Shown here: positions 38,193 through 64,000 of the stretch, in pieces
How the letters are laid out: each line of letters starts with the position of its first letter
Numbering within the stretch: position 1 is the stretch's first letter
NCBI GenBank assembly: GCA_963764715.1
Contig: CAVXTP010000011.1
Location: 27,979 to 91,978, forward strand
Direction of reading: 5' to 3'
Source of the DNA: an uncultured Acidobacteriota bacterium
Lineage (GTDB): Bacteria; Acidobacteriota; Thermoanaerobaculia; UBA5066; Gp7-AA6
Length of the DNA stretch: 64,000 bases
Made by a program: the position numbers and the translations under genes
The notes under the pieces: model-generated
What the model was told of the DNA's origin: nothing
Database searches by the model: none
What the model saw: only the letters and a program-made list of their open reading frames with translations

Positions 38193-40100
38193 CTATTCGC
38201 GGGCGGCCGCAGGCTCCAGCTTCTCGACGCGGATCGCCGTGGCCTTGAACTCCGCGGTGCCGGACTTGGGGTCCGTCGCGTCGATCGTGAGCAGGTTCGT
38301 GGCGACGTCGTCCTGAAAGTGGAGGGTCATGAAGGCGAGCCCGGGCCGCAGCGTCGAGTCGTAGCGGGCGGGCACGTCGACCGCGCCGCGGCGCGAGACC
38401 GCCCGGACGAGCTCGCCGTCCGCGACGCCGAGGCGCGCTCCGTCCTCGGGAGCGATGTCGAGCGATTCTCCGCGGCGAAGCGGCGACGTGTAGCCCGCCG
38501 TCTGCACGCCGGTGTTATACGAGTCCAGGCGTCGGCCCGTGGTCAGGCGGATCGGGAACTCCTCGGAGAGCTTGTCGACCGGCGGATCGTGCTCGACGGC
38601 GTGGAACGGGGCCCGCGGCCCCTCGACGGGATCCGCCCAGAGGCGCCCGTGAAGGAACGGGCTGCCGGGGTGCGACTCGTCGGGGCACGGCCACGCGATT
38701 CCCTTCAAGTCCTCGAGTCGCCGGTAGCTCATCCCGCCGTGCCACGCCGACAGCGAGCGCAGCTCGTCCCAGACCGTTTCGGCGTGGGCCGTCCCGAGCT
38801 CCGCGCCGAGGCGCCGGCCGAGCTCGACGAGGATGGCGAGGTCGGGCCGCGCGTCGCCCGGCGGTTCGAGGGCTTTGCGCACCCGCTGGACGCGGCGCTC
38901 GCTCGAAGTGACCGTGCCGTCGTCCTCGCACCAGGAGGCCGCGGCCGGCAGGACGACGTGGGCGATCTCCGCCGACTTCGTGAGGAACATGTCCTGGCAG
39001 AGGATGAAGTCGAGGCGCGAGAGCAGCTCGATCGCCCGGGTCTGGTCGGCCTCAGACTGCACGGGGTTCTCGCCCAGCACGTAGAGCGCATGAAGTTTGC
39101 CGTGCTCCATCGCCTCGAACATCTGCGACAGATGCCAGCCGTTTTTCGAAGGGATCTTCGCCTTCCAGGCCCGCTCGAACTTCGCGCGGTGCTCGGGGTT
39201 CTCGACGTCCTGGCCACCCGGCAGCTTGTTCGGCAGCGCGCCCATGTCCCCGCCGCCCTGGACGTTGTTCTGGCCGCGCAGGGGGCAGAGTCCCGACCCC
39301 CACCGGCCGACGTGGCCGGTCAGGAGCGCCAGGTTGATGAGGGCGAAGACGTTGTCGACGGCGTTGTGGTGCTCCGTGATCCCGAGCGTCCAGCAGAGCT
39401 GCGCCTTGCCCGCCTTCGCGTAGGCGTGCGCGACGTCCCGGATCGCGGCCGCCGGCACGCCCGTCTCTTTCTCGGCGTACGCCAGCGTGTACTTCTCGAC
39501 GCACGCGCGGTAGGCGTCGAACCCCTCCGTGGCGCGGCCGATGAACTCCCGGTTCTCGAGGCCCGCCGCGAGGATCTCGCGGCCCATGGCGTTGGCGAGC
39601 GCGATGTCCGAGCCGACGTCGAGGCCGAGCCACGTGTCCGCCCACTGCGCCGAGACCGTGCGCCGCGGGTCGACCACGACCAGACGGGCGCCGTTGCGCA
39701 CGCCCTGGAGGACGTGGTGGAAGTAGATCGGATGCGCTTCGCGCGCATTCGATCCCCACAGGAAGATGAAGTCGGCCTCCTCCGCCTCCCGGTAGGAGCT
39801 CGTCCCGCCCCCCGCTCCGAACACCGTCGTCAGACCGACGACGCTGGGAGCGTGTCAGGTGCGGTTGCAGCTGTCGATGTTGTTCGAGCCGAGGGCGACG
39901 CGGGCGAACTTCTCGGCGAGATAGTTCACCTCGTTGGTCGCCTTCGAGCACGAGAAGAGGCCGATCGCCTCTCCGCCGTGCGCGTCGCGAACCCGGCGGA
40001 GGCCCTCGGCGGCCCGGTCGAGGGCCTCGTCCCAGGACGCCTTCCGGAGCTTTCCGCCATCGCGAACCATCGGCTCGGTCAACCGCGTATACGGCTTCAT
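38193..40100 (-). CDS. Formate dehydrogenase catalytic Mo/W subunit, selenocysteine-containing (Sec at TGA 39855-39857)
   Basis: NNIDSCNRT-U-HAPSVVGL aligns with FdhF R-x-U-H; LRGQNNVQG; the two ORF-track fragments are in frame across one TGA; SECIS present. Confidence 0.92.
39825..39843 (-). promoter_or_regulatory. Bacterial SECIS element
   Basis: CGUCGUC-GGUCU-GACGACG hairpin starting 11 nt after the UGA; loop and spacing match E. coli fdhF SECIS as recalled. Confidence 0.88.
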
Positions 40101-48987: not shown

Positions 48988-50253
48988 TCACGGCTCCCGG
49001 CGCCGATCGAGGTCGCGGATCTTGACGACGAGCGCCACGATCGCGAGGAGGATGAGCCCGAGCGAACCGAAGAGGCCCTTGCGCCGGAACTCACGCTCGG
49101 AGTGGATCCTGGCCGCCGCGGCGGACGCCGTGCGCGTCACGGCGAGGCCTCCGTCCACGGCCTTCTTCACGGCCGCGGGATCGAAGAGGTGAACGTCGGC
49201 GCGCGCCTTGGTCAGCGCCTCGTCGGCGTGGGAGAGCTCGAACTGGACGCGCGAGACCTCCATGCCGGCCTCGGCCTCGACCTTGAGGAGGGCCTTGGCG
49301 GCCGCCGTGTCGTCGCGCAGCCGGCGCAAGTCGGCGTACATCGCCGCCGCGGCCTGCGCGCCCTTCGTGCCGGCCTCGTGGCAGGAGGAGCACTTGCTGG
49401 CGGAGCCGTCGGCGAGGAACTCGTCGGTCGGGTGAACGATCGCGTGGTTCTCGTGGCAGGTCACGCATCCCGGCAGGTCGAGCTCCGCGAACGCCTTCTG
49501 GTGCGGGCTCGCCTTGAACTGGTCGGCGAAGATCGAGTGGCAGGTGCCGCAGACGTTGGCGACCGAGCCCACGTTGGGCGGAGCGGCGCCGTGGTTGCCG
49601 TGGCAGGAGTTGCAGGTCGGGGCGGAGAGGTCGCCCTTCTTCGTCAGCATCTCGAAGTGCACGCTCTCCTTGTACTTCGCGTACACGTCCGACGGGAGCT
49701 TGTGCGCGGCCATCAGGCCGGCGTCGCCGTGGCAGTGGTTGCAGGTCTCGGCCATGCGCGTCGGATAGACCGGCGAGCGTGCGTCCTTCACCGGCAGGAC
49801 GCCGTGCGCCCCATGGCAGCTGACGCAGGTCGCCACCTTCTCGTCGCCCGCCGCGAGCTTCTTGCCGTGGCCGCTCGTGCGGTACTCGACGAGCTGGTCG
49901 ACCCGCAGGCTGGGGTTGTACTGCTTCATCCGGGCGGCGTCGCCGTGGCAGTCCCCGCAGAGGCCCGGGATCTCCCGCGGCGAGGGCTTCCCCCGGAATC
50001 CCTTGCGGCGGTCGTGCGCCGCGTCCTGGTCCTCGGCCTTCGGGTCTCCGCCGTGGCAGCTGGCGCAGGTGAATCCGGTGCGCGCGTGGAGATCGTCCGC
50101 GAACGCCTTCGCCGGAGGCGTCAGGCGGGCGTCGTCGAGCGCGAGGTGGCAGTCCACGCACGTGGAGGAAGCCGGCGCGGGCTCCGGGGGAACGCCGCGC
50201 GCCGGGGCCGCCCAGAGCACGCCCGCGATCGCGGCGGCGGCGAGGGTCTTCAC
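48988..50253 (-). CDS. Nonaheme cytochrome c with C-terminal membrane anchor
   Basis: GTG start overlapping the cytochrome b stop; signal peptide; 9 CxxCH; C-terminal TM. Confidence 0.92.
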
Positions 50254-51350
50254 GGTGCGGCCTTTCCGTGGGGCAGCAGAGCGAGCACCGTCAGGACCAG
50301 GGCCCCGATCAGCGAGAGGACGGCCGCCGCGTTCCACAGCCGGGACGGCCGGCCGCGGGCGGCGCCGCGGTCGAGGAGCGGCACCGCGATGAGCAGCACG
50401 GCGAGCACGGAGAAGAACAGCACGCCGAGCGTCTCGCCGGGGATGCCGGCGATCTCGGCAGGCAGGTACTTGAGGGCCTGGAACATCCAGAGGAAGTACC
50501 ACTCGGGCCGGATTCCGGCCGGTGCGGACGAGAAGGGATCGGCCTTGCGTCCGAGCTCCCACGGGAGGAACGCGGCGAGCGCCGCGAGGAGGCCCACGGC
50601 CGTCAGCCATCCGATCGCGTCCCGGAGGAGGAAGTCCGGAACGAAGCGCATCGTCGGCTTCGGGCCCTGCTTCTCGATCGACGGGGGCACGCTCATGCCC
50701 TTCTGCTGCACGAGAAGAAGGTGCAGGCCGAGGATGGCGGTCGTGATCGCCGGAAGGATCGCGACGTGGATGCCGTAGAACCGCGAGAGCGTCGCGCCCG
50801 TGACGTCGGAGCCCCCGCGGAGGATCCGCGAGAGCAGCGGGCCGATGGCCGGAATCTGCGCCGGCACGTCCGTGCCGACCTTCGTCGCGAAGTAAGAGAG
50901 CTCGTTCCACGGCAGAAGGTAGCCGGAGAACCCGAATCCGAGCGCGAGGAACAGCAGCACCACGCCGGAGATCCAGGTCAATTCCCGCGGCGCCCGGTAC
51001 GCCTTCAGGAAGAAGACCGAGATGAGGTGCAGGACCACGGCGCCCACGAACAGGTTGGCGGCCCAGGAGTGGATCGACCGGATCAGCCAGCCGAACGGAA
51101 CTTCCGCCATGATGTACTGGACGCTCTCGAAGGCCTCCGCGGCGCTCGGCCGGTAATAGAGGAGCAGCAGGATCCCGGTCGCCACCTGCACGGAAAAGAG
51201 AAAGAGCGCCATCCCGCCGAGGTAGTAGAAGACCGAATACCGGTGGATCGGGACTTGCTTCTTCGCCGCGAGGTGGGCGAAGTCCTCCCAGCCGAGACGA
51301 TCCCGGACCCACGCCGCGAGCGAGTGGCCGGCGGGGGCGGCCGTCGTCAG
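50250..51350 (-). CDS. Cytochrome b of a Rieske/b complex (fused b6 plus subunit IV type); apparent CTG start
   Basis: [31 protein letters not shown] motifs. Confidence 0.92.
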
Positions 51351-51799
51351 CTCCGTCGAAGGACGATCTTGTCGCCCCTCACGTTCACGTCGATCTTGGT
51401 CAGCGGCCGCGGCGGCGGCCCGGAGACGTTGGTCCCGTTGGTGTCGTAGACCCCGTCGTGGCAGGCGCACCAGATGTCGCTGCGTGCGGCGCGGTACTGG
51501 ACCGTGCAGGCCAGATGCGTGCAGGTCCCCGAGAGGGCCTTGAGCTCGCCCGCCGCAGTGCGAAAGACGAGGACCGGCTTGCCGCCGAACGGAACGATCC
51601 GCCCGCTGTTCGCCGGGATGTCCGATGGCTTGATGTCGAGGTCGACTTCCGAGAGCGACGGCTCCGAGGTGCGCGGCGGAACCACGTATCGCAGCACGGG
51701 ATAGAGAAACGAGAGCATCGTCGCTCCGACGCTCCCGCCGAGGAGGTACGCGATCCACCGCCGCCGGGAGTCGTCTTCGACCGTCTCGACTTCTTCCAG
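51347..51799 (-). CDS. Rieske [2Fe-2S] protein; apparent CTG start
   Basis: Tat-like SRRRW plus TM; CTHLAC and CACH; GPPPRPL; GGAGG just before CTG 51799. Confidence 0.92.
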
Positions 51800-51844
51800 G
51801 GGACCTCCGTGGCGCGAGATTAGACGATGCCTCTGCCCGGTTCC

Positions 51845-51860
51845 TGATGCAATCTCATCA
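51845..51860. promoter_or_regulatory. TGATG-N6-CATCA palindrome (putative activator site)
   Basis: TGATGCAATCTCATCA; 22 nt upstream of TAATCT -10 box (51822-51817) of the Rieske operon. Confidence 0.6.
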
Positions 51861-51894
51861 TGGTCCGACGTTAGATTACGCTGTCCCATCGGGC

Positions 51895-52989
51895 GTGGAC
51901 GAAGAAAATCTCTTTCCGGGACTGCGGGCCTACCTCCGGGAGCGGTTCGGGGCGGAGGCGGGAGAGGCACGGATCGAGCCCCTCGCCGTCCGCGCGGGCG
52001 GCATCAAGGAAGGAGGCTACGGTATCCCGCACCGCGTCTCCTGGGACGGCGCGTCGGGGCCCCGGACGCTGGTGCTCGAGACCGTCCGGCCGGGCCCTTT
52101 CGGGCACGAGGACCCGAGCGACCGCGCGGGCATCCTCCTGCGCGCCTCCGAGGACTACGGCACGCTCGAGCGGCACGTGCGGGCCGTGGACGTCGGCGCG
52201 TTCCGCGGGAGCGGTCCCGCCCTCAGCCTCGGCGGCTGCGGCGAGTTCTTCATCCTCACGGAGTTCGCCGAAGGGGAGCCCTACGCCGTCGACTTCGACC
52301 GGATCGCGCGCCGAGGCAGCCTCGAGGAGCTCGACGGCGCGCGGGCCCGGACGCTCGCCGACTATCTGGCGGCGATCCATCGGGACCCGGTCCGGCATCC
52401 GAGCTGGTATCGGCGGCGGCTGCGCGAGCTCGTCGGCTCGGGCGAATGCATCGCCGGCATCGCCGACTCGTATCCGCTCCCGTTCGGGTTCATCGACGCC
52501 GGTCTCCTCCGCGAGGTCGAGACGCTCGCTCTCGGATGGCGATACCGGCTCCGGGACCGGGCGGATCGCCTTCGGACGATCCACGGCGACTTCCACCCCT
52601 GGAACATCCACTTCGCCTCGGGCGTGGATTTCCGGGTCCTCGACCGCAGCCGCGGCCCCTTCGGCGATCCGGCGGACGACGTGGCCTCGCTCGCGATCAA
52701 CTATCTCTTCTTCGCCCTGCGCACGGCGGGCGACTTCCGCGGCCCGTTCGCCGAGCTCTTCCGCATTTTCTGGGACCGCTACGCGGACGCGTCGCGGGAC
52801 GCGTCCCTGCCCGAGATGATCGCGCCCCACTTCGCGTTTCGGGCCCTCGTGCTCGCCAACCCGGTCTGGTACCCCCGGGAATCGGAGGACGTGCGGCGCC
52901 GGCTCTTCCGCTTCATCCTGTCGGTTCTCGAAGCCGAGCGGTTCGACGTCGAGCGGATCCCCGCGCTGTTTGAGCGGTCCTGGCCGTGA
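51895..52989 (+). CDS. APH/choline-kinase-like phosphotransferase
   Basis: HGDFHPWNI catalytic loop, LDRSRG..GDPADDV. Confidence 0.8.
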   Translation: MDEENLFPGLRAYLRERFGAEAGEARIEPLAVRAGGIKEGGYGIPHRVSWDGASGPRTLVLETVRPGPFGHEDPSDRAGILLRASEDYGTLERHVRAVDVGAFRGSGPALSLGGCGEFFILTEFAEGEPYAVDFDRIARRGSLEELDGARARTLADYLAAIHRDPVRHPSWYRRRLRELVGSGECIAGIADSYPLPFGFIDAGLLREVETLALGWRYRLRDRADRLRTIHGDFHPWNIHFASGVDFRVLDRSRGPFGDPADDVASLAINYLFFALRTAGDFRGPFAELFRIFWDRYADASRDASLPEMIAPHFAFRALVLANPVWYPRESEDVRRRLFRFILSVLEAERFDVERIPALFERSWP

Positions 52990-53519
52990 GCTGGGCCGTC
53001 TGGATCACCGGGCCGCCGGCTTCGGGAAAGACGACCGTGGCCCGGGAGGTCCTGCGGCGGCTCGCGAAGGCCGGCTCGAGAGCCGTATGGCTCGAATCGG
53101 ACGCGCTGCGCCGGATCCTCACGCCCCGGGCGGACTACTCGCCCGCGGGGCGGGACCGCTTCTATGGCGTGCTCGCCGACCTCGCCGCCCTGCTGTGCCA
53201 CCAGGGCTTCGACGTCCTCGTCGACGCCACGGCCCCGCGCCGGAAACACCGCCGCCGGCTGCGCGAGCGCGTCCCGGATTTCCTCGAGGTGCTCGTCGAC
53301 GCGCCGGCCCGCGTGCGCGAGGCGCGGGACCCCAAGGGCCTCTATCGACGCGCCCGCGCGGGACGCGCTCCGAACCTTCCCGGAGCGACCTCGGCCTACG
53401 AGGCGCCGGAGGAGCCGGACCTCGTCCTGTCCGGCACCGCGGATCCGGAGAAAAACGCGGGCCGGGTTGTCCGGCTTCTTCGAAAACGGAATCTGCTGGC
53501 GCCGGCCGTCGCGAAATGA
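52986..53519 (+). CDS. Adenylyl-sulfate-kinase-like P-loop kinase
   Basis: WITGPPASGKTT, RDPKGLY, YEAPEEPD; GTGA overlap. Confidence 0.82.
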   Translation: MSWAVWITGPPASGKTTVAREVLRRLAKAGSRAVWLESDALRRILTPRADYSPAGRDRFYGVLADLAALLCHQGFDVLVDATAPRRKHRRRLRERVPDFLEVLVDAPARVREARDPKGLYRRARAGRAPNLPGATSAYEAPEEPDLVLSGTADPEKNAGRVVRLLRKRNLLAPAVAK

Positions 53520-53588
53520 TGCATCGATCTCATGACAGGCACAGGCATTCGGGTACATCGTAGGGACGTTCAAGGCAAGGAGGAAACC

Positions 53589-54053
53589 ATGAACCTCATT
53601 CGTTACGAGCCGACGACGTTCCCGATGTTCCGCGAGATGGAAGAGGTGTCGGATCGTCTGAATCGGCTGTTCGGCGGACGGATTCGGCCCAACGGCGGCA
53701 AGGAGTCGCTGACGGTGACGGACTGGACGCCGCTGGTCGACATTCAGGAGTCCGACAACGAGTACCTGATCAAGGCCGAGCTCCCCGAGGTCCGGAAGGA
53801 AGACGTCAAAGTGACCGTCGAAAACGGGGTGCTCACCCTTCAGGGAGAGCGCAAGCAGGAGAAGGAAGAGAAGGGGAAGAAATTCCACCGGATCGAGCGC
53901 TCCTACGGCGTCTTCCTGAGGACGTTCACGGTTCCGCTGGATGCGGAGGAGACGAAGGTGGCGGCCGACTTCAAAGACGGCATCCTTCGGGTACACCTGC
54001 CCAAGGCCGAAAAGCCGCGGCCCAAGGCCATCGAAGTGAAGGTCGCTTCGTAG
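53589..54053 (+). CDS. Hsp20/alpha-crystallin small heat-shock protein
   Basis: AAGGAGG RBS; WTPLVDI, AELPEV, ERSYG, FKDGILRVHLPK. Confidence 0.95.
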   Translation: MNLIRYEPTTFPMFREMEEVSDRLNRLFGGRIRPNGGKESLTVTDWTPLVDIQESDNEYLIKAELPEVRKEDVKVTVENGVLTLQGERKQEKEEKGKKFHRIERSYGVFLRTFTVPLDAEETKVAADFKDGILRVHLPKAEKPRPKAIEVKVAS

Positions 54054-54095
54054 TCCTCCTCACGGCGGAACGGCGCCGCGGCTGCGGCGCACTCC

Positions 54096-54126
54096 AGCGG
54101 CCGGCGACTTCGCCGGCCGCTTTCTT
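54096..54126 (+). terminator. Rho-independent terminator
   Basis: AGCGGCCGGCG-ACTT-CGCCGGCCGCT followed by a T-rich run, between convergent genes. Confidence 0.75.
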
Positions 54127-54135
54127 GTTCCCGGG

Positions 54136-55584
54136 CTACTTGCTCAGGCCGAGGTCCGCGAGGATCTTGGGCTGCTCTTCCTCGAGGGCGAGGACCTGGT
54201 GGCAGGCCTCGCAGTCGTCCGTGATGACCTTGCCGTCGGCGCTCTTGTGCTTTCCGTCGTGGCACCGGAAGCAGCCCAGGAAGTCCTCGTGCCCGATGTT
54301 GTTGGGATGGCTGCCCCACGTCACGCCCATCTCGGGAAAGATGTTCCGCAGGTAGATGGCCTTGACCTTTTCGGCGGCCGTCTCGACCGCCGGCCGGTCG
54401 TTCTGGAAGACCGACGGGTACTTGGTCCGATAAAAGTCGCCGAGCGCGGCGGGGATCTTCTGGGACGCCGTGGCGCGGTCGGGGTAGGTGGCCTTCAGGG
54501 CCGCGACGGCCTCGCGCTTGACGAAGGGCAGCTTCGTGCTGATGCGGCCCTCGGTCATGGCCTTGTCGACGGCCCGGTCCGGCATGTCGAAGGCGTGGGT
54601 TGGCCGATTGTGGCAGTCCATGCAATCCATCTTGCGGCGCTCGGCGTTGGCGAGCTGGTCGGTCGTCAGCTTCGTGTCGCTCGAGACGTACTCGACCTTC
54701 TTGCCCGCGTCGTCGACGTAGGTCACGAGCGGGATGACCTGGCGGCGCCCGTCGGTCGACACGTATTCGATGCGCTCGGCGTCCGAGAGGTGCCGGCCGT
54801 GAATCCCGACGAGCCCCTCGGCCGTTCGCCCGCCGATCTTGAGGAGAAGGACGCTCGTCGAGGGCGTGTTCTTCTCGTCGTCGGCGTACTTGGTCCGGAC
54901 GAGGAACTTGTCACCCGTGAACTTCTGCGGCCAGTGACAGTGCTCGCAGGTGTCGCGGGCGGGCCGCAGGTCGTGCACGGGAGAGGGGATCGGCTTGGAG
55001 TAGGTCTTCAAGGCCACGGCGAAGACCTGCCGCACGCCCGAGATCTTGGCCTTGACGAACCATGGAGCTCCGGGCCCGATGTGGCACTCGACGCAGGACA
55101 CCCGCGAATGGGGAGAGTCGACGTAGGCGGCGTACTCCGGCTCCATGACCGTGTGGCAGGTCTGGCCGCAGAACTGGGCCGAGTCCATGTACTCGACGCC
55201 CTTGTAGGACGCGGCGCCCATGATGGCGAAGTTGGCGAACGTCAGGAGGCCGACAAGTATGACGGCCCGCCGCAGGAACGGGCTCCGGAGGTCGACCTTG
55301 GGGTACTCGGCCGGCAGCTCCCCCTTCGCGCGGAGCTTGCGGAAACGCATCCAGATCCCGATCGGAATCAGCACCAGGCCGAGGGCGAAAATCCCCGGCA
55401 GAATCAGGAAGAACACGATGCCGGTGTAGGGATGGACCGGCCGCGCCTGCACGATGAGGTAGATCCAGAACGCGATCAGCGTGACCGCCGCGCTCGTCGT
55501 GAGCACGACGCCGGCCTCCGTGATTCGATTCTGGCCGAGATAGACGGCCGTGCGAACGCGGGGACGTTCCGTGAAGCGGCTCAT
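54136..55584 (-). CDS. ImcH-like NapC/NirT-family inner-membrane multiheme cytochrome c (5 CxxCH plus 1 CX3CH)
   Basis: Three N-terminal TM; FCGQTCH, CVECHIGPGA, LRPARDTCEHCHWP, MDCMDCHNRPTH, GCFRCHDGKH match Geobacter ImcH as recalled. Confidence 0.88.
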   Translation of the reverse strand: MSRFTERPRVRTAVYLGQNRITEAGVVLTTSAAVTLIAFWIYLIVQARPVHPYTGIVFFLILPGIFALGLVLIPIGIWMRFRKLRAKGELPAEYPKVDLRSPFLRRAVILVGLLTFANFAIMGAASYKGVEYMDSAQFCGQTCHTVMEPEYAAYVDSPHSRVSCVECHIGPGAPWFVKAKISGVRQVFAVALKTYSKPIPSPVHDLRPARDTCEHCHWPQKFTGDKFLVRTKYADDEKNTPSTSVLLLKIGGRTAEGLVGIHGRHLSDAERIEYVSTDGRRQVIPLVTYVDDAGKKVEYVSSDTKLTTDQLANAERRKMDCMDCHNRPTHAFDMPDRAVDKAMTEGRISTKLPFVKREAVAALKATYPDRATASQKIPAALGDFYRTKYPSVFQNDRPAVETAAEKVKAIYLRNIFPEMGVTWGSHPNNIGHEDFLGCFRCHDGKHKSADGKVITDDCEACHQVLALEEEQPKILADLGLSK

Positions 55585-55618
55585 GTCGCGGGATCTCCTT
55601 TGTCGGCTGGCAGCGAGC

Positions 55619-58426
55619 TTACCGGTACACGAAGAGCGTCGCAAACAGCATCAGCGCGATCAGGGCGAGGCCGATCCCCAGGGCGGTGAAGCCCAGGCGC
55701 CGCCAGTGACGGCTGGTCGAGGGCGGGGGCGCCGGCATCATGAGGCGCTCGAGTTCGCCGCTTTCGACGAGCTGCTCGTACTCCCGCGGGCGGTCCTTCT
55801 TGAGCTCCTCGAGCGGAACGCCCTGCGTGAAGATCACCGTGTCGATCGGGAACTTCTCCGGACGGAAGTGGGTGTTGAAGAAGTGGATGCTGAAGATGAA
55901 GCACACCGCCAGCAACGCTTCGTCGCTGTGGATGGTGGTGGCGACGTTCACCATCCAGCCCGGCATCACGCGGGTGAAGATGGTCGGAAACCACAGGATC
56001 AGCCCGGTCAGGCCGATGACCGCGACCCCCCAGAACACGGCGAAGTAGTCGAACTTCTCCCAGTACGTCCAGCGGCCGTACCGGGGGCGCGGCCCTTTCT
56101 TGACGAACCACTTGAGGGAGCCCACGAACTCCCGCCAGTCCTGGCCGTTGAACATCATGCTGTCCGGGCCGAAGATGAACCTGCGCCAGCCCTTGCCGTC
56201 GCGCCTCTTCTGCCGGACGAGGTCGAAGATGTGGAGGCCGAAGTAGGTGAAGGTCGCGACCGCGCAGATGCGATGAATGTAGCCGGCGGCCTGGAAACCG
56301 CCGAGGAGCTTCGCCAGCAGCTTGGCCCAGGGCGCGTAGGAGAACTTCAACAGCATGCCGGTCAGCGCCAGTCCGAGGAAGCTCGCGATCACCGTGAGGT
56401 GAAGGTTGCGCTGGTAGGCCGTGAAGCGGCGGACGTAGACGCCGGGCGCCTCGCCGGCTTCGAGGGGGGCCGTCCGGGGCTCCTTCAGCGAGCGCCGAAG
56501 CCACAGGGCCGTGTGCGTTCCCGCCAGCGCGAGCGTGCCCACGAGAAGCGTCGTCATGCCCCAGAACGTGTAGAAGAGGAACGGATAGCGCTTGGGGTCG
56601 TGGTGGGTGGCGTGCGTCAGGTAGCCGGCGAACTGCCGGTGCGAGCCGCGGTGGCACTTGCCGCACGTCTGGACGATGTTGGTCCGGGAGAGGTGCGAAC
56701 GCTGATCGGTCACCGGCAGGATGTCGTGCGACCCGTGGCAGTCGTAGCATTTCGCCGTCGTCAAATATCCGAGCTTCGAAACCTTTCCGTGGAAGGTGTC
56801 GAAGTACGTCTCGGCGATCTGCTCGTGGCAGCGGCCGCACTGGTCCATGATGTGGAGGCGGAAGTTGGAGAGGTCCGTGCGCTGGATGCTGTGTGCGGAA
56901 TGGCAGTCGCTGCACACCGGCAGTTTCTTCGAGGTGCGGGTGACGCTCGGGGAATGGACGCTTTCGGTGAACAGCTCGTAGATGCCCCGGTGGCACTTCG
57001 AGCACGTGCGCGCGACGTTGGCCGGGTTCACCGTGGACCGGGGGTCGGCGGCCGGCAGCTCCCCGTGGGCGCTGTGGCAGTCCGCGCAGTTGGCGGTGAC
57101 CGTCAGCCCCGCCTGCATCAGCCCCTTGCCGTGAATGCTCTCGAGGTAGTTCTCGACGATCTGCCGCTGGGCCCCCTTGTAACGCACGGCGGCCTTCTGT
57201 CCCGTCCGGTGGCAGTTAGCGCAGAGGGCGGGCACGTTGCGGGAGAACGTCGGCGAGTTGGAATCGCTCTTGCCGAGGGTCCCGTGGGCGCTGTGGCAGT
57301 CGCCGCACGCCGGGGCGTCCGGGTTTCCCCGCGCGACGAGCTGTCCGTGCGTGCTCTGCCGGTACTGGTCCACGACCTCCGCGTGACAGATCGAGCAGTC
57401 GACTTTGGCGACCATCGCGCGGCAGGGCCGCGTGGCGTCGGCCGGGTCGCCGCCCGTGTGGCACTGCACGCAGGCGATCCGGGCGTGGCGCGAGTGAGCG
57501 AGCTCGTCCTTGTCGGTGAAGAGCGAGACCGTTCCGGCGTTCCGGGCGGCCTTGATGTTCGGGTCCCCGTGGCAGCGCAGGCAGTCCTGGTCGGCCATGC
57601 CCTGGGAGTAGAAGACCTTGCGCACCTTGTGCGGCGAGTGGCAATCCACGCAGGCCGGGATCAGGTGCGGCTGTTTCTCCCAGAGCTCGCCGCGAATGAC
57701 CTTGCGATGGACGGCCTCGATCTGGGCGTGGCAGTGCGTGCAGGTCTTCGAGATGTTCTGCTTGGCGATCGAGGAGCGCGGGTCGGTGTGGGGCAGCACG
57801 AAGTGCGCCGTATGGCAGCTCGTGCAGACGGCCGTCACGGTCAGGCCGCGCTTGAAGAGGCCTTCGCCGTGGATGCTGTCCATGTAGTTTTCGAGGATGT
57901 TGGTCTGGGGAATCTGCCGCGTCAGGCTGACCGTCGTGCCTTCGCGATGGCAGCTGCCGCAGAGGCGCGGGACCTCCATGATGGAGACCGGGGAACCGGG
58001 GCTCGAGGGACGCTGGACGCGGTGCGTGCCGTGGCACGTCTTGCAGCCGGGAGCGGAAGCATCGCCGGCCGCGGCCTTCCGGCCGTGCACGCTCTCGACG
58101 AACTGCTTCTGCTCGTCCGTGTGGCAGGACCCGCAGTCGACCTTCGCCAGCTTGTCCGGGTGGGGAAGCTCCTTCACGTCGCCGTGGCACGAGGTGCAGT
58201 CGAGGTCGGCATGGGGCGAGGCCTTCAAGGCCGCGGCGTCGAAGTTCGGGGCCTCGCCCGCCTTTCGCTTGCCCGCGCGCGGCCCGGGCTCGTGGCATGC
58301 GGCGCAATCTTCGGAGGTCGGCGCGGCGGCCTCCTGGCCGGAGAGGACCGGGGCGAGCGCCAGAACGGCGAGGGTCAGGAGAAGAGCAAGGGCCCTGGGC
58401 ACCGCCCTTCCGCCGGGGGGGGTCAT
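55619..58426 (-). CDS. CbcL-like cytochrome c/b fusion with 19 CxxCH motifs
   Basis: Signal peptide, 19 CxxCH, FdnI/HydC-like cytochrome b domain (TYWEKFDYFAVFWG, IHSDEALLA, HFFNTHFRPEKFP). Confidence 0.9.
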   Translation of the reverse strand: MTPPGGRAVPRALALLLTLAVLALAPVLSGQEAAAPTSEDCAACHEPGPRAGKRKAGEAPNFDAAALKASPHADLDCTSCHGDVKELPHPDKLAKVDCGSCHTDEQKQFVESVHGRKAAAGDASAPGCKTCHGTHRVQRPSSPGSPVSIMEVPRLCGSCHREGTTVSLTRQIPQTNILENYMDSIHGEGLFKRGLTVTAVCTSCHTAHFVLPHTDPRSSIAKQNISKTCTHCHAQIEAVHRKVIRGELWEKQPHLIPACVDCHSPHKVRKVFYSQGMADQDCLRCHGDPNIKAARNAGTVSLFTDKDELAHSRHARIACVQCHTGGDPADATRPCRAMVAKVDCSICHAEVVDQYRQSTHGQLVARGNPDAPACGDCHSAHGTLGKSDSNSPTFSRNVPALCANCHRTGQKAAVRYKGAQRQIVENYLESIHGKGLMQAGLTVTANCADCHSAHGELPAADPRSTVNPANVARTCSKCHRGIYELFTESVHSPSVTRTSKKLPVCSDCHSAHSIQRTDLSNFRLHIMDQCGRCHEQIAETYFDTFHGKVSKLGYLTTAKCYDCHGSHDILPVTDQRSHLSRTNIVQTCGKCHRGSHRQFAGYLTHATHHDPKRYPFLFYTFWGMTTLLVGTLALAGTHTALWLRRSLKEPRTAPLEAGEAPGVYVRRFTAYQRNLHLTVIASFLGLALTGMLLKFSYAPWAKLLAKLLGGFQAAGYIHRICAVATFTYFGLHIFDLVRQKRRDGKGWRRFIFGPDSMMFNGQDWREFVGSLKWFVKKGPRPRYGRWTYWEKFDYFAVFWGVAVIGLTGLILWFPTIFTRVMPGWMVNVATTIHSDEALLAVCFIFSIHFFNTHFRPEKFPIDTVIFTQGVPLEELKKDRPREYEQLVESGELERLMMPAPPPSTSRHWRRLGFTALGIGLALIALMLFATLFVYR

Positions 58427-60648
58427 CCTTCGGGCTCGTTTTCACCGGTCGGCCCGCCCGGTTCATTCTCCGCGCCGCGCTCGCGGAGGCGCTCGAGCTC
58501 GATCGGATGCTCTTCCTCCATCTCGCGCTCGGTCAGCATCCCCGTCAGCCAGGCCATGTTCATCGGGTAGGCGTCGGGGTTGAAGACGACGTAGTAGAGG
58601 TGCCAGACGAGAATGGCGAGCGTGGCGAGCCAGGCCTCGTAAAAGTGGATGACGCGGGCGACGTCGTAGCCGAGCTTGGTCAGGAGGCCGATGAACGTGT
58701 TGTCGAACCACATGACCGTGCCCGTGACGGCCATCACCGCCGTGCCCCAGACGAGCGCCCAGTACTCGCTCTTCTCGATGTAGCTGAACCGGTCGAACCG
58801 CGGCTTCTCGGCGGAGAGCCCCGTGTTGTACTTCAGCACGGCGACCGCGTCGCGAAGGTCCTGGCCGCTCCACCAGATGTCGCGCAGGAACTGGCGTCCC
58901 CGCGGCGTCAGCGTGAGATAGGCGACGTGGTAGACGCTCGAGGCCACCATGAAGACTGCCGAGATCCGATGAACGAGGCTCCGGACGTCGAACGCGGTCG
59001 GGGAGAAGCGGCGCAGGGCGAGGACCCACCAGGCGTCGGGGTAGCGCAGCATGAACCCGGTGACGACGAGCAGGACGAAGCTCACCATGAGGGTCCCGTG
59101 CTGGAGACGCTCGCCGAGCGTCATCCGGAGGTAGAGCCCGCGGCCGGCGGGCGGCTCGACGATCTCGCCCCGACGGACCTGCATGTGAGTCTTCGACTTT
59201 CGGAGGAAGTCGAGGAGGTTGTGAAGGAGCATTCCGCCGACGACGGCGACGATGAGAATCAGGTACAGCGTCGCGATCCAGTAGAGCAGCGGCTGCTCCT
59301 GCGCCGTCGCGGCGACGTGGATCTTGGCTTTCGCGAACCGCTCGTTGGCCCCCGGATGGCAGCCCGAGGCGCCGCAGGTCCTGGCCAGGTTGGCCGGGCT
59401 GATCCGGGAAGCCGGGTCCGAGGAGGGGAGGATGTCGTGCGTGCCGTGGCAGCTGGCGCAGTTGGCCACTTCGAGGACTCCGCCGCGGGCCGCGAGGCCG
59501 TGGTAGCTGTCGGCGAACGTCTGCGTCCGGTCCCGGGGAAGGTCCCACTTTTCCGTGACCTTCAGCGAAGTGTGGCACGGCGAGCAGACCCGGGCCGAAA
59601 CGTTGGCGGCCGAGACGGGGGAGCGCGGGTCCTTGGTTGAAAGGATGCCGTGCTCGCCGTGGCAGTCGGTGCACGCGGGGGCGTCCTGGTTTCCCTTCCG
59701 GATCGCCACACCGTGGACGCTCGCGTCGTACTCGCGGCTCTGCACCTCGTGGCAGCGCGCGCACACCTGCTCCACGCGCATCTTGTTGACCTTCGAGGCG
59801 GAGTCGAACCCGTAGCGCATGTCGTGCGCGCCGTGGCAGTCGATGCAGGTGGGCGCCTTGGCGTTCCCGCGGGCCAGGGCGGCCCCGTGGACGCTGTGCT
59901 CGAAAGACTCGATGAACCCGGACGTCGAAGCGCCGTTCTCGCGGACGGCCTTGTCCCCCACGTGGCAGGAGACGCAGAGGCGCTCCTGGGCGAGCTTCAA
60001 GGCCCCGGGCTCGGCGCCGGAACCGGCCGTGACCTGCGTGCGGTGGCAGTCGACGCACGTCGGGGCCTTCGGCTTTCCGGCGAGAAGGCCCTTGCCGTGC
60101 TCCGACGCGAGGAAACGGGTCTTCACCTGCCCGTGACACGTCCCGCACTCGGCGGCCTGGCGGACGGGAGCGAATCGGAATGCGGCGTCCTTGACGGCGA
60201 CCACGTCATGGCTGCCGTGACAGGCCTTGCAGGACGTCTCGGCCTTGCCCTGGCCCGCGGCCGCCCGCGCGATCCCCGGATGAAAGGCATGCGACTTGCC
60301 GGCCGCGTCGTGGCAGGTGGCGCAGTCGACGGGCTTCAGCTTCTCCTTGTGCGGAAAGTCCGACTTCGCGAGGTCGGCATGGCAGTCGACGCAGGAAACC
60401 CCGGCCTGGCCATGGACGGACGCGGCGAACTTCTTCTCCGCCACGAAAACGCTCCGGCCGTCGGCGCGTTTCGCCTCGGCGTCCCCGTGGCAGGCCTGGC
60501 AGTCCTCGTTCGCGGGAGCCGGGGCCGGCGCGGCGGAAGAGACGGATGCCGCCAGGAGGAGCGCGGCGGCGAAGAGGGCGGGGGCGAGAGAAAACCGGCC
60601 CCTGGGCCCGCCGTTCGAGGGCGGATCGCCCCGGGGCCGGTCGAACAT
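58423..60648 (-). CDS. Multiheme cytochrome c/cytochrome b fusion (12 CxxCH plus 1 CX4CH)
   Basis: TAATG overlap; ERLQH, VHR, FSYIEKSEYWALVWG, IHFYEAWLA..VWH cytochrome b domain. Confidence 0.9.
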   Translation of the reverse strand: MFDRPRGDPPSNGGPRGRFSLAPALFAAALLLAASVSSAAPAPAPANEDCQACHGDAEAKRADGRSVFVAEKKFAASVHGQAGVSCVDCHADLAKSDFPHKEKLKPVDCATCHDAAGKSHAFHPGIARAAAGQGKAETSCKACHGSHDVVAVKDAAFRFAPVRQAAECGTCHGQVKTRFLASEHGKGLLAGKPKAPTCVDCHRTQVTAGSGAEPGALKLAQERLCVSCHVGDKAVRENGASTSGFIESFEHSVHGAALARGNAKAPTCIDCHGAHDMRYGFDSASKVNKMRVEQVCARCHEVQSREYDASVHGVAIRKGNQDAPACTDCHGEHGILSTKDPRSPVSAANVSARVCSPCHTSLKVTEKWDLPRDRTQTFADSYHGLAARGGVLEVANCASCHGTHDILPSSDPASRISPANLARTCGASGCHPGANERFAKAKIHVAATAQEQPLLYWIATLYLILIVAVVGGMLLHNLLDFLRKSKTHMQVRRGEIVEPPAGRGLYLRMTLGERLQHGTLMVSFVLLVVTGFMLRYPDAWWVLALRRFSPTAFDVRSLVHRISAVFMVASSVYHVAYLTLTPRGRQFLRDIWWSGQDLRDAVAVLKYNTGLSAEKPRFDRFSYIEKSEYWALVWGTAVMAVTGTVMWFDNTFIGLLTKLGYDVARVIHFYEAWLATLAILVWHLYYVVFNPDAYPMNMAWLTGMLTEREMEEEHPIELERLRERGAENEPGGPTGENEPEG

Positions 60649-60935
60649 TACTTCTTCTCGGCCGGGTATTCCTTGAGCCAGGCGACGTCGACTTCCGTGG
60701 CCTTGCGGCTGGCCTTCTGATCGACCAGCCACTTTCCACGGTCGTTGTAGGTCGCCGCCCCCTTCTTCGGCATCTTCTCGCCATGGCAGTAGAGGCAGTT
60801 CTCGGCGGGGAAGCCGAGCTCCTTGGCCTTCTTCTGCATCGGCATGGTCGCCGACGAGGGGACGCTCAGGGCGATCCAGCCGCTCCACGCAATAACGACG
60901 ACCGCCAGTGCGGAGCGCAAACTCGTTCTTTTCAC
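60648..60935 (-). CDS. Small monoheme cytochrome c
   Basis: Signal peptide, CLYCH, Lys-rich; GGAGG RBS. Confidence 0.85.
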   Translation of the reverse strand: MKRTSLRSALAVVVIAWSGWIALSVPSSATMPMQKKAKELGFPAENCLYCHGEKMPKKGAATYNDRGKWLVDQKASRKATEVDVAWLKEYPAEKK

Positions 60936-60968
60936 AGTCGGGCCTCCTTCCTTTCGGGGGTGACGGGT

Positions 60969-61256
60969 CTACTTCTTCGGGTAGTCCTTCAGCCATGCGC
61001 CGTCGACGGCCTTGGCGCCCTTCTTGTCCTTCTCGGCGATGAGCCACTTGCCGACGTCGTTGGGCTCGTGCATCCCGGCGTCCTTCTTGGGCAGCTTGTC
61101 GACGTGGCAGTACTGGCAGTTCTTGGCGTCGACGCCCGCGGCCTTCGCCTGCTTCTGGATGTCGAGCGTGGCGGTCGAAACGGCGCTGAACGCCATCCAC
61201 CCGCACCACACGAGCAGGGTCACCATCGATCCGAGACGGGAGCCGGTCTTCGACAT
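60969..61256 (-). CDS. Small monoheme cytochrome c (tandem paralogue)
   Basis: Signal peptide, CQYCH; AAGGAGG RBS; shares NDxGKWL and WLKxYP with its neighbour. Confidence 0.85.
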   Translation of the reverse strand: MSKTGSRLGSMVTLLVWCGWMAFSAVSTATLDIQKQAKAAGVDAKNCQYCHVDKLPKKDAGMHEPNDVGKWLIAEKDKKGAKAVDGAWLKDYPKK

Positions 61257-61296
61257 GGGGTTTCCTCCTTGACCAGATTCTATGGGGTCGGGGCGC

Positions 61297-61473
61297 TCAC
61301 GGGCGCCAGTGCAGTCCGACGTAGTAGCGATTGGCGTCGTAGTTCGCGAGAGGGCCCGCCTGGTCGAATGCCACGCGTTCCTCGTACTGGTCGAGGTTCC
61401 ATTCGAGCGTCAGCCCGAGGTTGTGGATGAAGAAGAACTCGGCCAGCGCCCGGGCGCGGTTGAAGGTGAAGGA
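61297..61473 (-). CDS. C-terminal fragment of a probable outer-membrane beta-barrel, truncated at the junction
   Basis: Not in ORF track; SFTFNRARALAEFFFIHNLGLTLEWNLDQYEE...NYDANRYYVGLHWRP* with alternating aromatic/hydrophobic strands. Confidence 0.6.
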   Translation of the reverse strand, partial: SFTFNRARALAEFFFIHNLGLTLEWNLDQYEERVAFDQAGPLANYDANRYYVGLHWRP

Positions 61474-61476
61474 TCA
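61472..61476. other. Abrupt high-GC to low-GC junction (probable chimera or contig join)
   Basis: Composition switches at GATC 61472-61475; an in-frame stop appears in the barrel frame immediately past it. Confidence 0.85.
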
Positions 61477-61624
61477 AAATGTTTACGCTTATCATTTTGT
61501 CGGGAAATTATTGGAAGCCATAGTCCTGAAAAATCACGCAACGCTGGTGGCGGCAATTAACCCGGGAACACAGAATTTGGAAGCTTTCCTTTTGAACTTC
61601 CTTCCAAATAAAGGCAGCAATTGA
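61475..61624 (+). CDS. 3' fragment of an unidentified gene from the AT-rich segment
   Basis: Open frame QNVYAYHFVGKLLEAIVLK...NKGSN* with no native start. Confidence 0.35.
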   Translation, partial: QNVYAYHFVGKLLEAIVLKNHATLVAAINPGTQNLEAFLLNFLPNKGSN

Positions 61625-61955
61625 TAAAATAAGATTTTCAACCGGTTAAAAAATGATTCCTGCCGCTAGGTAATTCCCATTCCGGAATAAATTTCCGTGT
61701 GCTATTCTCTGCGTGGATTCCGTTTGTAGTTTTCGCTATCCTATTCATCTTACCCCTAACTTCTGAGAATCTGCGACTAAGAAAAGTGCGCCATCGAATA
61801 TCTTAAAACTCAAACTGGTTTAGATCTGATTCATAATTCCGGATCCACCGCAGGTCTCCGGTATCGGTTTATCAATGAGTCAGGCTTCAATTATGAGAAA
61901 CTGAAAAAAATAAATTTTAAACATATTAATTATACCCATAAATCAGCATTATTTT

Positions 61956-62698
61956 ATGAAAAAGAAAACAATCGCCGCCAATTTATATTCCTGTGTTTCT
62001 CCAATGAATTGCCTGCGTAAGAAATCAACCAGGTTACTTGATTTGATTTTTCTCATCCTGCCATGCACATTATTCAGTCAAACCCTGGATGATTTCAGAA
62101 CAGCAGCAAGCAGCAACGGCGTGAATCTAATTCCATTCACTGATCTCAGAAAAGATGCCACTTCAATTGCTGATGATGTGCAACGCAGGAAAGATGATGC
62201 AAAATCGTATGATTATGACCTTTTAGCGAGCCAGAAAAACAATATGCTAAAGGAGATCAAAAAGATAATGATGACATTGCCTCGGATCATGAAGAGACAG
62301 AAGATTTTAAAAACAGACATCCGGATGGAAATACATCTTCTTTTGATGGCGAAATTGATAAAGAAAAAGGATATATCCGGGTATAATGATAAAATAAAAG
62401 ATTTGAATGATAAATTGGGAAGGCAGTAGAAGTATATGACCGTCGGCTACAACGCCCGCGCAGGGTTGCGGGAATATTTTCAAAAAGCGTCGATCAATTA
62501 TCTGATGTAAAATCCAACCCGGATAAATATCTGGGAAGCAGTCCCTCCGAAGAAGACAGAAATAAACTGCAGGAATATGTAAGGGTAATTGAAGATCAGA
62601 TTCAATCCAACATGAAGACCCACCAGGATCAGGAAGACGGCGCCAGGAAAAGGAAAGCTGATTTTGAAAACCTCATCAAAACAACAGAATACAAGTGA
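61956..62698 (+). CDS. Secreted helical/coiled-coil hypothetical protein with several frameshifts
   Basis: Signal-like ...CTLFSQ; charged helical sequence continues in shifted frames to ...FENLIKTTEYK*. Confidence 0.55.
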
Positions 62699-62725
62699 AG
62701 AATTGACCAGTAAATTTGACAAGAT

Positions 62726-62753
62726 GTCAAGTCCATGAAATGATGGACTTGAC
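62726..62753. terminator. Hairpin between convergent genes
   Basis: GTCAAGTCCAT-N6-ATGGACTTGAC. Confidence 0.5.
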
Positions 62754-62866
62754 CTGGACTTGACCCCTTAGAGTTAAGTCAGCGATAAGGCAGAATGTAT
62801 AGAGAGGGCAATTACGTTTTAATACAAAACCAATGGCAAGACAACGAGATTCCTGTTTGTCAGTAT

Positions 62867-63484
62867 TCAAAAACCATTATAAGTAAATACTGTCCGTATA
62901 TAATGAATTTTAGAAGTGTCCACCCCAAAATCCTTATACAGTCCCCCTACGATCGAGTTGATTGCATAATTTGCTTCGAGCGCTTGAATCTGTTCTGTAT
63001 GTATTTCTATTGTATCGCCGCCTAATGTTAATGAGGTTGCTGTAGGGAAAGCTACATTAAAGTGCAGGGGCAGAAAGTTGTCTATTAAGACCAGCCTTTT
63101 AGTAGACGGACTATAAGAATAGGTGTCAAGTCCTACCTCCATACGTTAAATAGGTTGAATCCGTCTTAAATAAAAAGGTTGCCCAGTTTATGGTAATCAG
63201 TTGGCTAGTTTGATAAGTATACACGCCAATATCCTAGATAACTTGACCGTTTGGGAAAAGATTTCCCACTTATAGCCTGTAAGTTTGCAAAAATCCGTTG
63301 TACAGGGAGGCGGAGGAGGCGGAGGAGGTGGAGAAGAAGTAGTCGATGATTTGCTGCAGCTAAAACCCGCCGTAAAAATAAAAAATGTCAGAAATACTAA
63401 CTTGATTACTTCTCTCTTCCTGCAAATGTTCAGGATCGAGCATGAACCCAAAAGCGGCCTGGTCATTTTAATTTGTTTTTTCAT
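62867..63484 (-). CDS. Bacteroidota-style lipoprotein with a poly-Pro linker, frameshifted
   Basis: FIFTAGFS-C-SKSS lipobox-like, P9 tract; continues into ORF 62867-63142. Confidence 0.55.
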
Positions 63485-63613
63485 TTTGGCTATTCGGGTA
63501 AGTCATCCCCTAAACAAACCTTTGCCTTAACAACCGGTTAACTTAGGCGACATGACATTTATCCAATTTATTTTCTCTTATTTTATAATGAATTTAACTC
63601 CGGTATGATCGAA

Positions 63614-63638
63614 AAAAAATACCGATTAATAGGTAGTC
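63614..63638. promoter_or_regulatory. NarL/LuxR-type 7-2-7 inverted site, copy 1
   Basis: AAAAAATACCGATTAATAGGTAGTC. Confidence 0.45.
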
Positions 63639-63860
63639 GTGTTTTTGTAAATCTTTTGTGCGACACTGACCCCCACCGACCCATAAGTTGGAAAAGGAGG
63701 GGTAACAATAAAAGTTGTCCAGGTGGCATCAATATATTGTTGTACATAGCTTACCGGTCTTTACAGAAATAGGAATACGTATCTGCTGCGGAAAAGTTGT
63801 AATTTCAGCAACAGGGACTGGCGAATGTATTTTAATAAAACTAACGGGAATTTCCCTTAT

Positions 63861-63885
63861 AAAAAATACCGATTTATAGGTAGTC
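63861..63885. promoter_or_regulatory. NarL/LuxR-type 7-2-7 inverted site, copy 2
   Basis: AAAAAATACCGATTTATAGGTAGTC, 24/25 identical to copy 1. Confidence 0.45.
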
Positions 63886-64000
63886 ATCATTCTGATAGAT
63901 CGGGGTAATCCATGTTATGGAATGCCGTGTATCCTGAAAAAAGATGGTATATGGAGCAAAATAAATTCAATCTGGAATTGAGCAAAATTTTAGCCGGGTT

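Follow-up and report, generated by a model that had tools for sequence, protein, structure and literature searches.

The 64,000-nucleotide DNA stretch analysed here (the window; contig CAVXTP010000011.1 of assembly GCA_963764715.1, from an uncultured Acidobacteriota bacterium) carries a cluster of multiheme cytochrome genes. In its source genome, G000, the window forms the last part of contig C11; other G and L codes denote the related genomes and loci that were compared, L041 and L042 being the same contigs as G095 and G064. Once the cluster is joined to its true upstream sequence, found on another contig of the same genome (C18), its sequence points to an Mtr-type outer-membrane conduit and four quinone-linked modules in one block, a new combination of known parts. 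The first-pass annotation had proposed up to four quinone-interacting modules in one locus; these are present, beside the conduit, and the restored locus totals 69 c-hemes. On balance, we favour the view that it encodes a complete envelope-spanning electron-export system with parallel quinol exits onto one conduit, and its gene content makes participation in extracellular electron transfer (EET) well supported. The full gene order is mtrC, mtrA, mtrB-like, two monoheme genes, 13-heme c/b, 19-heme c/b, imcH, an insert, Rieske, cytochrome b and nonaheme, as follows (window positions unless C18 is named; TM, transmembrane).

G000:C18:2847-4922, MtrC-like decaheme, upstream of the MtrA-like gene
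G000:C18:1799-2794, MtrA-like decaheme, upstream of the barrel
61297..61472, minus strand, MtrB-like predicted outer-membrane barrel, 3' end (last 57 codons; the first 596 codons at G000:C18:3-1790)
60969..61256, minus strand, monoheme cytochrome c 1, 95 amino acids (aa), signal peptide, Lys-rich
60648..60935, minus strand, monoheme cytochrome c 2, paralog of monoheme 1 (47% identical)
58423..60648, minus strand, 13-heme c/cytochrome b fusion, 741 aa, 12 CxxCH and one CX4CH, five TM segments, six conserved TM His
55619..58426, minus strand, 19-heme c/cytochrome b fusion, 935 aa, six TM segments, six invariant TM His
54136..55584, minus strand, ImcH-family quinol dehydrogenase, 482 aa, three TM segments, CX3CH and five CxxCH, NapC/NirT-like
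54096..54121, plus strand, terminator-like GC hairpin of 11 pairs between the converging hsp20 and imcH genes
51847..54053, plus strand, opposite-strand insert of three genes outside the module: phosphotransferase-like (51847-52989), APS-kinase-like (52986-53519) and Hsp20 (53532-54053)
51347..51799, minus strand, Rieske [2Fe-2S] protein, second box CACHDGVY, probable CTG start
50250..51350, minus strand, unsplit cytochrome b, seven hydrophobic segments, His93/107/194/209, PEWY
48988..50253, minus strand, nonaheme cytochrome c, nine CxxCH, signal peptide, C-terminal membrane anchor
61473..64000, no strand, foreign low-GC tail, not part of the locus

The recount gave 9 + 6 + 19 + 13 + 1 + 1 = 49 c-heme motifs in the six minus-strand proteins of the window, the number and places first annotated. 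Two of them are non-canonical (CX3CH in the six-heme and CX4CH in the 13-heme protein). Shuffling each protein 1000 times gave a mean of 0.00-0.10 CxxCH and maxima of 0-3, whereas the real proteins have 1-19. Intergenic gaps in the upper run range from -4 to about 40 bp and the Rieske, cytochrome b and nonaheme genes overlap by 4 bp; the two groups lie 2336 bp apart, with the three opposite-strand genes between them. A sigma-70 promoter was looked for and none was found.

The last part of the window, 61473-64000, is foreign DNA brought in by a chimeric join that cuts the barrel gene, and the start of C18 is the true upstream sequence. This is concluded because the sibling genome G023 matches through 61472 and then runs into the barrel gene, because in two independent public contigs from different samples (X2 record 16 and X4 record 32) the match ends exactly at 61472 and the contigs continue, because positions 61526-63500 have essentially no cover in four of four runs, and because C18 continues at this point: its first 1790 bases are the missing part of the barrel gene, with a 4-base overlap with the end of C11. 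The GC content drops at 61473 from about 69% to about 39%; at 5 kb resolution, none of the 26 contigs has another stretch of this kind. The upstream sequence that the first-pass annotation had been missing is thus recovered, and contains the MtrC-like and MtrA-like decahemes and the remainder of the barrel. The tail itself (39% GC) holds frameshifted open reading frames (ORFs).

The protein encoded by the restored barrel gene (653 residues) is predicted by fold modelling to be a large plug-less MtrB-like barrel that profile hidden Markov models (HMMs) do not see. At E 0.01, two partial barrel proteins matched nothing in Pfam or NCBIfam, and a 107-sequence barrel profile run against PDB sequences did not find MtrB at E 1, nor anything relevant. 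The fold was predicted with 107 sequences for the intact G013 ortholog, 86% identical. The model (pLDDT 80) has 26 predicted strands, and MtrB has 26 strands. Its top Foldseek match is MtrB (6R2Q_B, E 8.8e-14, TM-score 0.63), and VIA-align also ranks MtrB first (Z 22.4, 550 aligned, rmsd 4.4; runner-up Z 14.4). Across 301 genomes of the Thermoanaerobaculia class, the barrel profile (E 1e-5) matched 165, of which 140 were listed as strong or partial strong and the rest as weak. Loci were fetched for 60 of these 140, on long contigs, as downstream-biased pieces of about 20 kb (about 5 kb upstream and 12 kb downstream), and mtrC and mtrA lie directly upstream of the barrel in 60 of 60. The upstream beta-barrel that had been expected is thereby borne out by strand number, by the top fold match and by its MtrA- and MtrC-like partners. 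The MtrC-like protein belongs to the OmcA/MtrC family (TIGR03507, 468.5 bits for a cut-off of 209.3; PF22113 also matched), and the MtrA-like protein has 10 heme motifs and scores 185.4 bits with TIGR03508 (MtrA/DmsE), against a cut-off of 192.2. Immediately 5' of mtrC, in 18 fetched loci, lie genes for two paralogous Cys-rich proteins of about 155-190 aa (L119:4919-6017; G000:C18). Neither Pfam nor NCBIfam recognises them; they might act as metal-binding regulators or as accessory factors.

Behind the barrel, the two monohemes appear from their sequences to form an unnamed family, the sole part of the locus without known family likeness. They have no conserved Met or His distal ligand, a low-confidence fold model (pLDDT 59.9) had no Foldseek match, and an ESM Atlas search returned only unnamed Acidobacteriota clusters. 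A likeness to the Cyc2 heme domain, which we had considered, was not supported.

The ImcH family is defined by three N-terminal TM helices and an atypical CX3CH followed by 5-9 CxxCH (PMC6295460). The window protein has three TM helices, CX3CH and five CxxCH, and its heme spacing (25,49,108,117,20) is close to that of GSU3259 (24,49,106,117,20,(38)) and of a six-heme Geothrix protein (24,49,109,117,20). It is thus a six-heme form without Geobacter's seventh (exit) heme, the same form being listed for Geothrix. The heme-1 and quinol-site residues of G. sulfurreducens ImcH (E127, H137, K173, Q179 and Y188; 10.1101/2023.05.03.539133) have as equivalents D134, H144, K180, Q186 and Y195, at a constant +7 offset matched by published numbering and not by alignment. 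The H, K and Q residues are kept in 38 of 38 aligned homologs, and E127 is Asp in the window protein. Topology, CX3CH, spacing and quinol-site residues all fit the ImcH-like assignment made initially. NrfH was the sole match in a PDB sequence search. In four members of the host genus (G006, G009, G024 and G258), the gene behind the barrel encodes a NapC/NirT tetraheme (PF03264 over cut-off) and these four genomes have no ImcH match, so that the slot behind the barrel takes alternative quinol dehydrogenases. The tetraheme gene stands directly 3' of the mtrB-like and monoheme genes (L129:7699-8403, L133, L135, L136), and its product may be the tetraheme called periplasmic in PMC8805035.

Two c/b fusions separate imcH from the monohemes. 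In the CbcL/MtrH/MtoC family, a c domain of 3-23 heme motifs is joined to an FdnI-type b domain with six TM helices, the genes often lying beside mtrAB (PMC6295460). The 19-heme protein falls within this definition, with 19 motifs, six TM segments and PF01292 over cut-off. Its spacing differs by 5-7 residues, summed over 18 gaps, from OGU58019 and WP_105502606, listed 19-heme members of a type already tabulated in 2018 (PMC6295460 Table S2), and the genome collection contains 599 or more stretches related to it. CbcL carries five His, one each in TM1, TM2 and TM3 and two in TM5, as described by Joshi and colleagues (10.1101/2021.04.15.440034). The 19-heme protein shows H638, H676, H718, H833 and H848 plus a sixth, H732, all invariant in 74 of 74 sequences, and the six His of the 13-heme protein (H476, H517, H560, H574, H668 and H683) are kept in 36-37 of 37. 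Several relatives of the latter have 13 canonical motifs. Its b domain aligns to FdnI (1KQF_C, E 3.2e-11) and gives a profile match to the 19-heme b domain at 31% identity; a PDB sequence search with the 13-heme protein found nothing. It has five TM segments instead of six and ends 316 residues past the last heme (against 347-369). A few members in PMC6295460 Table S2 are also five-TM, and no 12- or 13-motif member was seen in this table, read by eye. Thus, of the two CbcL-like proteins first annotated, the 19-heme one holds on motifs, TM number and His, and the 13-heme one retains the His/FdnI pattern without the six TM segments. In a midpoint-rooted b-domain tree (87 of 157 domains after 72% clustering, built without the characterised Geobacter, Shewanella and Rhodoferax members) the two fusions form deep sister clades, and the 13-heme protein would represent a sister subfamily of CbcL/MtrH. 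The four FdnI heme ligands align with b-domain His, and two extra b-domain His lie, in the predicted topology, at the cytoplasmic ends of TM1 and TM3; this pair may bind a third heme b.

CbcBA was also considered, for either fusion or for a split 11-heme c protein with a separate b protein, and was rejected on TM number and His pattern. CbcBA has a four-TM CbcB with three His and takes a fourth His from the CbcA anchor (10.1101/2021.04.15.440034), and is ruled out because the window proteins are fused, have five or six TM segments and carry two His in TM5.

The fourth module has the Rieske boxes, four heme-b His, PEWY and a co-encoded c subunit, the nonaheme, of a Rieske/b complex. The heme-ci cysteine of b6-type complexes is absent, an aromatic residue standing there instead both in the window protein and in the motifs counted among homologs, and the best NCBIfam scores on the block (cytochrome b6, ExtP) are below cut-off. 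Geobacter Cbc3 (CbcVWX, GSU1648-1650) is a predicted Rieske/b/multiheme complex. The Rieske and cytochrome b genes probably start at CTG. At the Rieske start, relatives show ATG or TTG, and in many of them an overlap is seen between the start of cytochrome b and the Rieske stop. Between the two blocks, G013 and G068 have hsp20 alone and G017, G223 and others have no gene at all. In G017, G223, L041, L042, L073, L084, L094 and L109, no more than about 250 bp separates the Rieske gene from the upstream module, which argues that the insert in the window is recent. A Fe-S/NrfD-triheme module replaces the Rieske block in two relatives.

Among the 301 genomes of the class survey, ImcH matches occur in 171 (one unpublished genome, G202, counts in the barrel and ImcH tallies). 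ImcH is present in 122 of the 140 barrel genomes, within 10 kb of the barrel in at least 43, positions being entered for 74 of the listed rows only. The 15 fetched loci of the host family have ImcH in 11, the 13-heme gene in 8, the 19-heme gene or its split form in 9, the Rieske/b block in 9 and all four in 4, and the 11 loci from other families of the order have ImcH in 4 and a split c/b in 3. The full four-module stack is found in seven genomes, all of one family (fetched loci plus G000, G023 and G013), and the contiguous order mtrC-mtrA-barrel-monohemes-c/b-ImcH occurs in G023, G013, G016, G017, G019 and L041/L042. The conduit family occurs in about half of the 301 genomes, and the modules are mixed and matched: the slot behind the conduit is conserved and is filled by interchangeable quinone-linked cytochromes. 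Six of the 78 best loci for the 19-heme gene have all four inner-membrane modules, and four of these six, outside Acidobacteriota or unnamed (Ignavibacteria, Zixibacteria), are without this barrel within 10 kb.

These distributions bear on whether ImcH and the c/b fusions are parallel exits or assemble into a single supercomplex in the membrane, such as a quinone loop that has both N-side and P-side sites. Such a supercomplex would suit the overlapping genes, the lack of Geobacter's exit heme in the ImcH found here, and the fact that a conduit-adjacent c/b fusion is never without ImcH (14 of 14 loci). We nevertheless regard it as very improbable: gene order is variable and either fusion is missing or split in relatives, no ImcH lies within 10 kb in 57 of the 78 loci of the 19-heme gene, and Geobacter single-module mutants are reported to function alone.

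In the export system that we favour, several inner-membrane modules would work in parallel, any of which could oxidise menaquinol. Electrons would then run along the c-heme arms (19, 13, 9 and 6 hemes), with the monohemes perhaps as links, to the MtrA-like protein inside the barrel and on to the MtrC-like protein, which would reduce Fe(III)/Mn(IV) minerals, humic matter or an electrode. Judging from characterised homologs, ImcH would take electrons from quinol at the periplasmic face at no cost to the proton gradient, the FdnI-type hemes of the c/b fusions would place oxidation on the cytoplasmic side, the gradient being paid to reach low-potential acceptors, and the Rieske/b complex would run a Q cycle that requires a high-potential acceptor. 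Since sidedness would differ between modules, so would the H+/e- yield, and the cell could match yield to acceptor. In Geobacter, ImcH releases protons outside with a higher yield and CbcL works at lower potential with a lower yield (10.1101/2023.05.03.539133, 10.1101/2021.04.15.440034). Geobacter ImcH is required for acceptors above -0.1 V, and Geobacter CbcL is reported to be constitutively expressed and to shut itself off above about -0.1 V. By analogy, the modules could be gated by potential as in Geobacter, a tentative proposal that we consider slightly more doubtful than probable; a co-transcribed stack would fit gating at the protein level.

Several observations weigh against this export reading. 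The touching or overlapping genes of the upper run suit co-expression, not transcriptional switching, and a FdnI-type domain conserves energy in the inward direction. The Rieske block is split off by the insert in the window and is missing in 6 of 15 loci of its own family. Moreover, the Rieske potential stands above that of bis-His multihemes, so feeding the conduit would be uphill unless the acceptor is strongly oxidising. In the rest of the class (34 loci), ImcH occurs once, Rieske/b twice and a c/b fusion in none of the fetched pieces, and all these genomes are kin and not independent, so that the counts describe and do not test. The host has heme-copper oxidases, cytochrome bd, alternative complex III (ACIII), NosZ and two further Rieske/b complexes, and therefore is no dedicated metal reducer. 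Finally, Shewanella MtrC is a lipoprotein and a lipobox pattern was found in none of 65 MtrC-like ORFs (heuristic starts, some truncated), so that surface display is only inferred, and a search for a GspD-type secretin in the host gave sub-threshold matches only.

The missing lipobox, the 69 c-hemes in one locus and the NosZ and oxidases elsewhere in the genome would also suit hemes that stay within the envelope, as a periplasmic electron store or a feed to soluble periplasmic reductases, with MtrC not exposed at the surface. We find this highly doubtful, as a 26-strand MtrB-like barrel is always co-encoded and purified MtrC alone binds MtrAB tightly (PMC8415449). Consistent linkage to a periplasmic terminal reductase, the outcome that the first-pass annotation had named as fatal to its proposal, was not found among 158 loci: a molybdoenzyme occurs in 2 of them and NosZ or NrfA-like ORFs in none, and the Mo enzyme of the window has no signal peptide. 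A counter-instance is G113, with a Mo-enzyme gene directly after the Rieske/b/multiheme block beside the conduit.

The direction of electron flow can also be read the other way. In a reversible or mainly inward locus, reduced humics, Fe(II) or a cathode would donate electrons via MtrC/A, the c/b fusions would reduce menaquinone at the cytoplasmic face, the direction in which FdnI conserves energy, the Rieske/b complex would reoxidise it towards O2 or N2O, and ImcH would export under anoxia. The membrane-proximal spacing of the 19-heme protein fits it: the last four gaps show a summed difference of 1 from MtrH/MtoC and of 17 from Geobacter CbcL, although this comparison is a weak fingerprint of motif spacings, made with no sequence alignment to Geobacter CbcL, MtrH or MtoC, and the last heme gaps of the 13-heme protein resemble Geobacter CbcL. 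MtoC is known from Fe(II) oxidisers, and Zhong and Shi reported that direction could not be told from any feature (PMC6295460). In addition, the host has O2 and N2O reductases, and the Rieske block would gain a downhill role. Inward flow is nonetheless unlikely in our view, since ImcH, reported from Fe(III) reducers only in the available text of PMC6295460, accompanies each conduit-adjacent c/b fusion in the 14 loci mentioned above, and a MtrC-type outer decaheme is typical of reducers. A broader scheme, which we hold to be quite unlikely, is a reversible switchboard, in which four co-expressed modules of graded yield would share one non-lipidated conduit and be selected by potential at the protein level, serving anoxic export as well as import for O2/N2O respiration, with the third, cytoplasmic-side heme b as the gate behind the diode behaviour of CbcL.

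Returning to the export system, its closest precedents are the mtrABC-mtrH-2x cymA cluster of Rhodoferax ferrireducens and the MtoAB-MtoC-MtoD clusters, which likewise combine a conduit with several quinol-interacting cytochromes, one of the CbcL/MtrH family (PMC6295460). Unlike them, the locus has ImcH instead of CymA, 13- and 19-heme fusions, the Rieske/b/nonaheme block and a barrel missed by MtrB HMMs; the available part of the PMC6295460 survey reports no mtrAB adjoining imcH. Geobacter sulfurreducens ImcH (GSU3259) and CbcL (GSU0274) are of the same families as the window proteins, but there the genes are dispersed, the conduits are Pcc/Ext, ImcH has 7 and CbcL 9 hemes, CbcBA is present, and it is only there that potential gating has been shown. 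Shewanella oneidensis MtrCAB (PDB 6R2Q) is alike in gene order, in having two decahemes and in the size (about 650 aa) and fold of its barrel; the barrel here is 12% identical to Shewanella MtrB, MtrC is without lipobox and the quinol exits are co-encoded. Among Acidobacteriota, the group 5 mtrCAB of Acidobacteriia (PMC8805035) has the same mtrC-mtrA-mtrB order, in Bryobacterales, unlike the window host, with a tetraheme behind mtrB and, in its available text, no inner-membrane quinone oxidoreductase recognised nearby. The expressed Mtr-like conduit EET2 of peat Acidobacteriota (10.64898/2026.05.27.727921), also Bryobacterales, has the same order; its main text holds no mention of ImcH, CbcL, Rieske or Thermoanaerobaculia, and its supplements may show related clusters. 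Desulfuromonas acetexigens also possesses an Mtr conduit, and when on electrodes it expresses homologs of ImcH and CbcL (PMC12133095); consecutive accession numbers suggest that these two genes are adjacent, and no statement that they adjoin mtrCAB was seen in the available text. Further related papers are PMC13591261, PMC9129911, PMC7399161, PMC9386147, PMC6137239 and 10.1101/2022.08.31.506072.

In the literature searched (subscription journals and preprint supplements excepted), neither imcH nor this stack was reported next to mtrCAB. Hence the claim of an undescribed layout holds for the combination and not for the principle, since several quinol oxidases with an Mtr conduit are already in print for Rhodoferax (PMC6295460). 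Given this precedent, the 19-heme type catalogued in 2018 and an inner-membrane stack that Ignavibacteria and Zixibacteria have without this conduit, we class the layout as a lineage variant and not as an unknown kind. Its unusual features, as they appear from sequence, are a class-wide HMM-invisible conduit, a non-lipidated MtrC, the six-His b domain and the unnamed monohemes. It physically ties ImcH and CbcL-family exits to an Mtr conduit, a pairing reported absent in 2018 and 2022 surveys, and offers one portable block for studying how potential-dependent quinol exits share a conduit. The six-His b domain gives a concrete idea for CbcL-type gating. Since the barrel family evades Pfam/NCBIfam MtrB models yet matches 165 of 301 genomes, EET in soil and sediment Thermoanaerobaculia is probably undercounted by HMM screens.

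The closest named homologs are from Thermoanaerobaculia, in line with the acidobacterial host initially suspected. Genes of the futalosine menaquinone pathway and of cytochrome c maturation occur in the host, and Thermoanaerobaculum aquaticum, a cultured member of the class, is cited as reducing iron and as carrying genes for MtrC and MtrA (PMC9671151).

Elsewhere in the window, 38193-40100 (minus strand) encodes the formate-dehydrogenase-alpha-like Mo enzyme, with an in-frame TGA at the active-site position, probably selenocysteine; considered as a linked terminal reductase, it was rejected, lying 9 kb away without signal peptide. NuoF- and NuoG-like genes lie at 33872-35724. A second large multiheme cluster of the genome (G000:C6; L120:6688-14828) is repeat-rich, with more than 40 motifs, frameshifted in the assembly, and also includes genes for a ferredoxin-reductase-like protein and for a small membrane protein of b type, with a probable barrel gene behind. 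L124-L127 (G000:C4, C20, C22 and C12) carry ACIII beside a heme-copper oxidase gene, two Rieske/b complexes, one with a clade II nosZ, and a Fe-S/NrfD-triheme module. Three further uncharacterised multihemes with 9, 8 and 5 motifs, two of them with TPR, are encoded at L121:12825-14810, L122:7313-9685 and L123:7014-9725.

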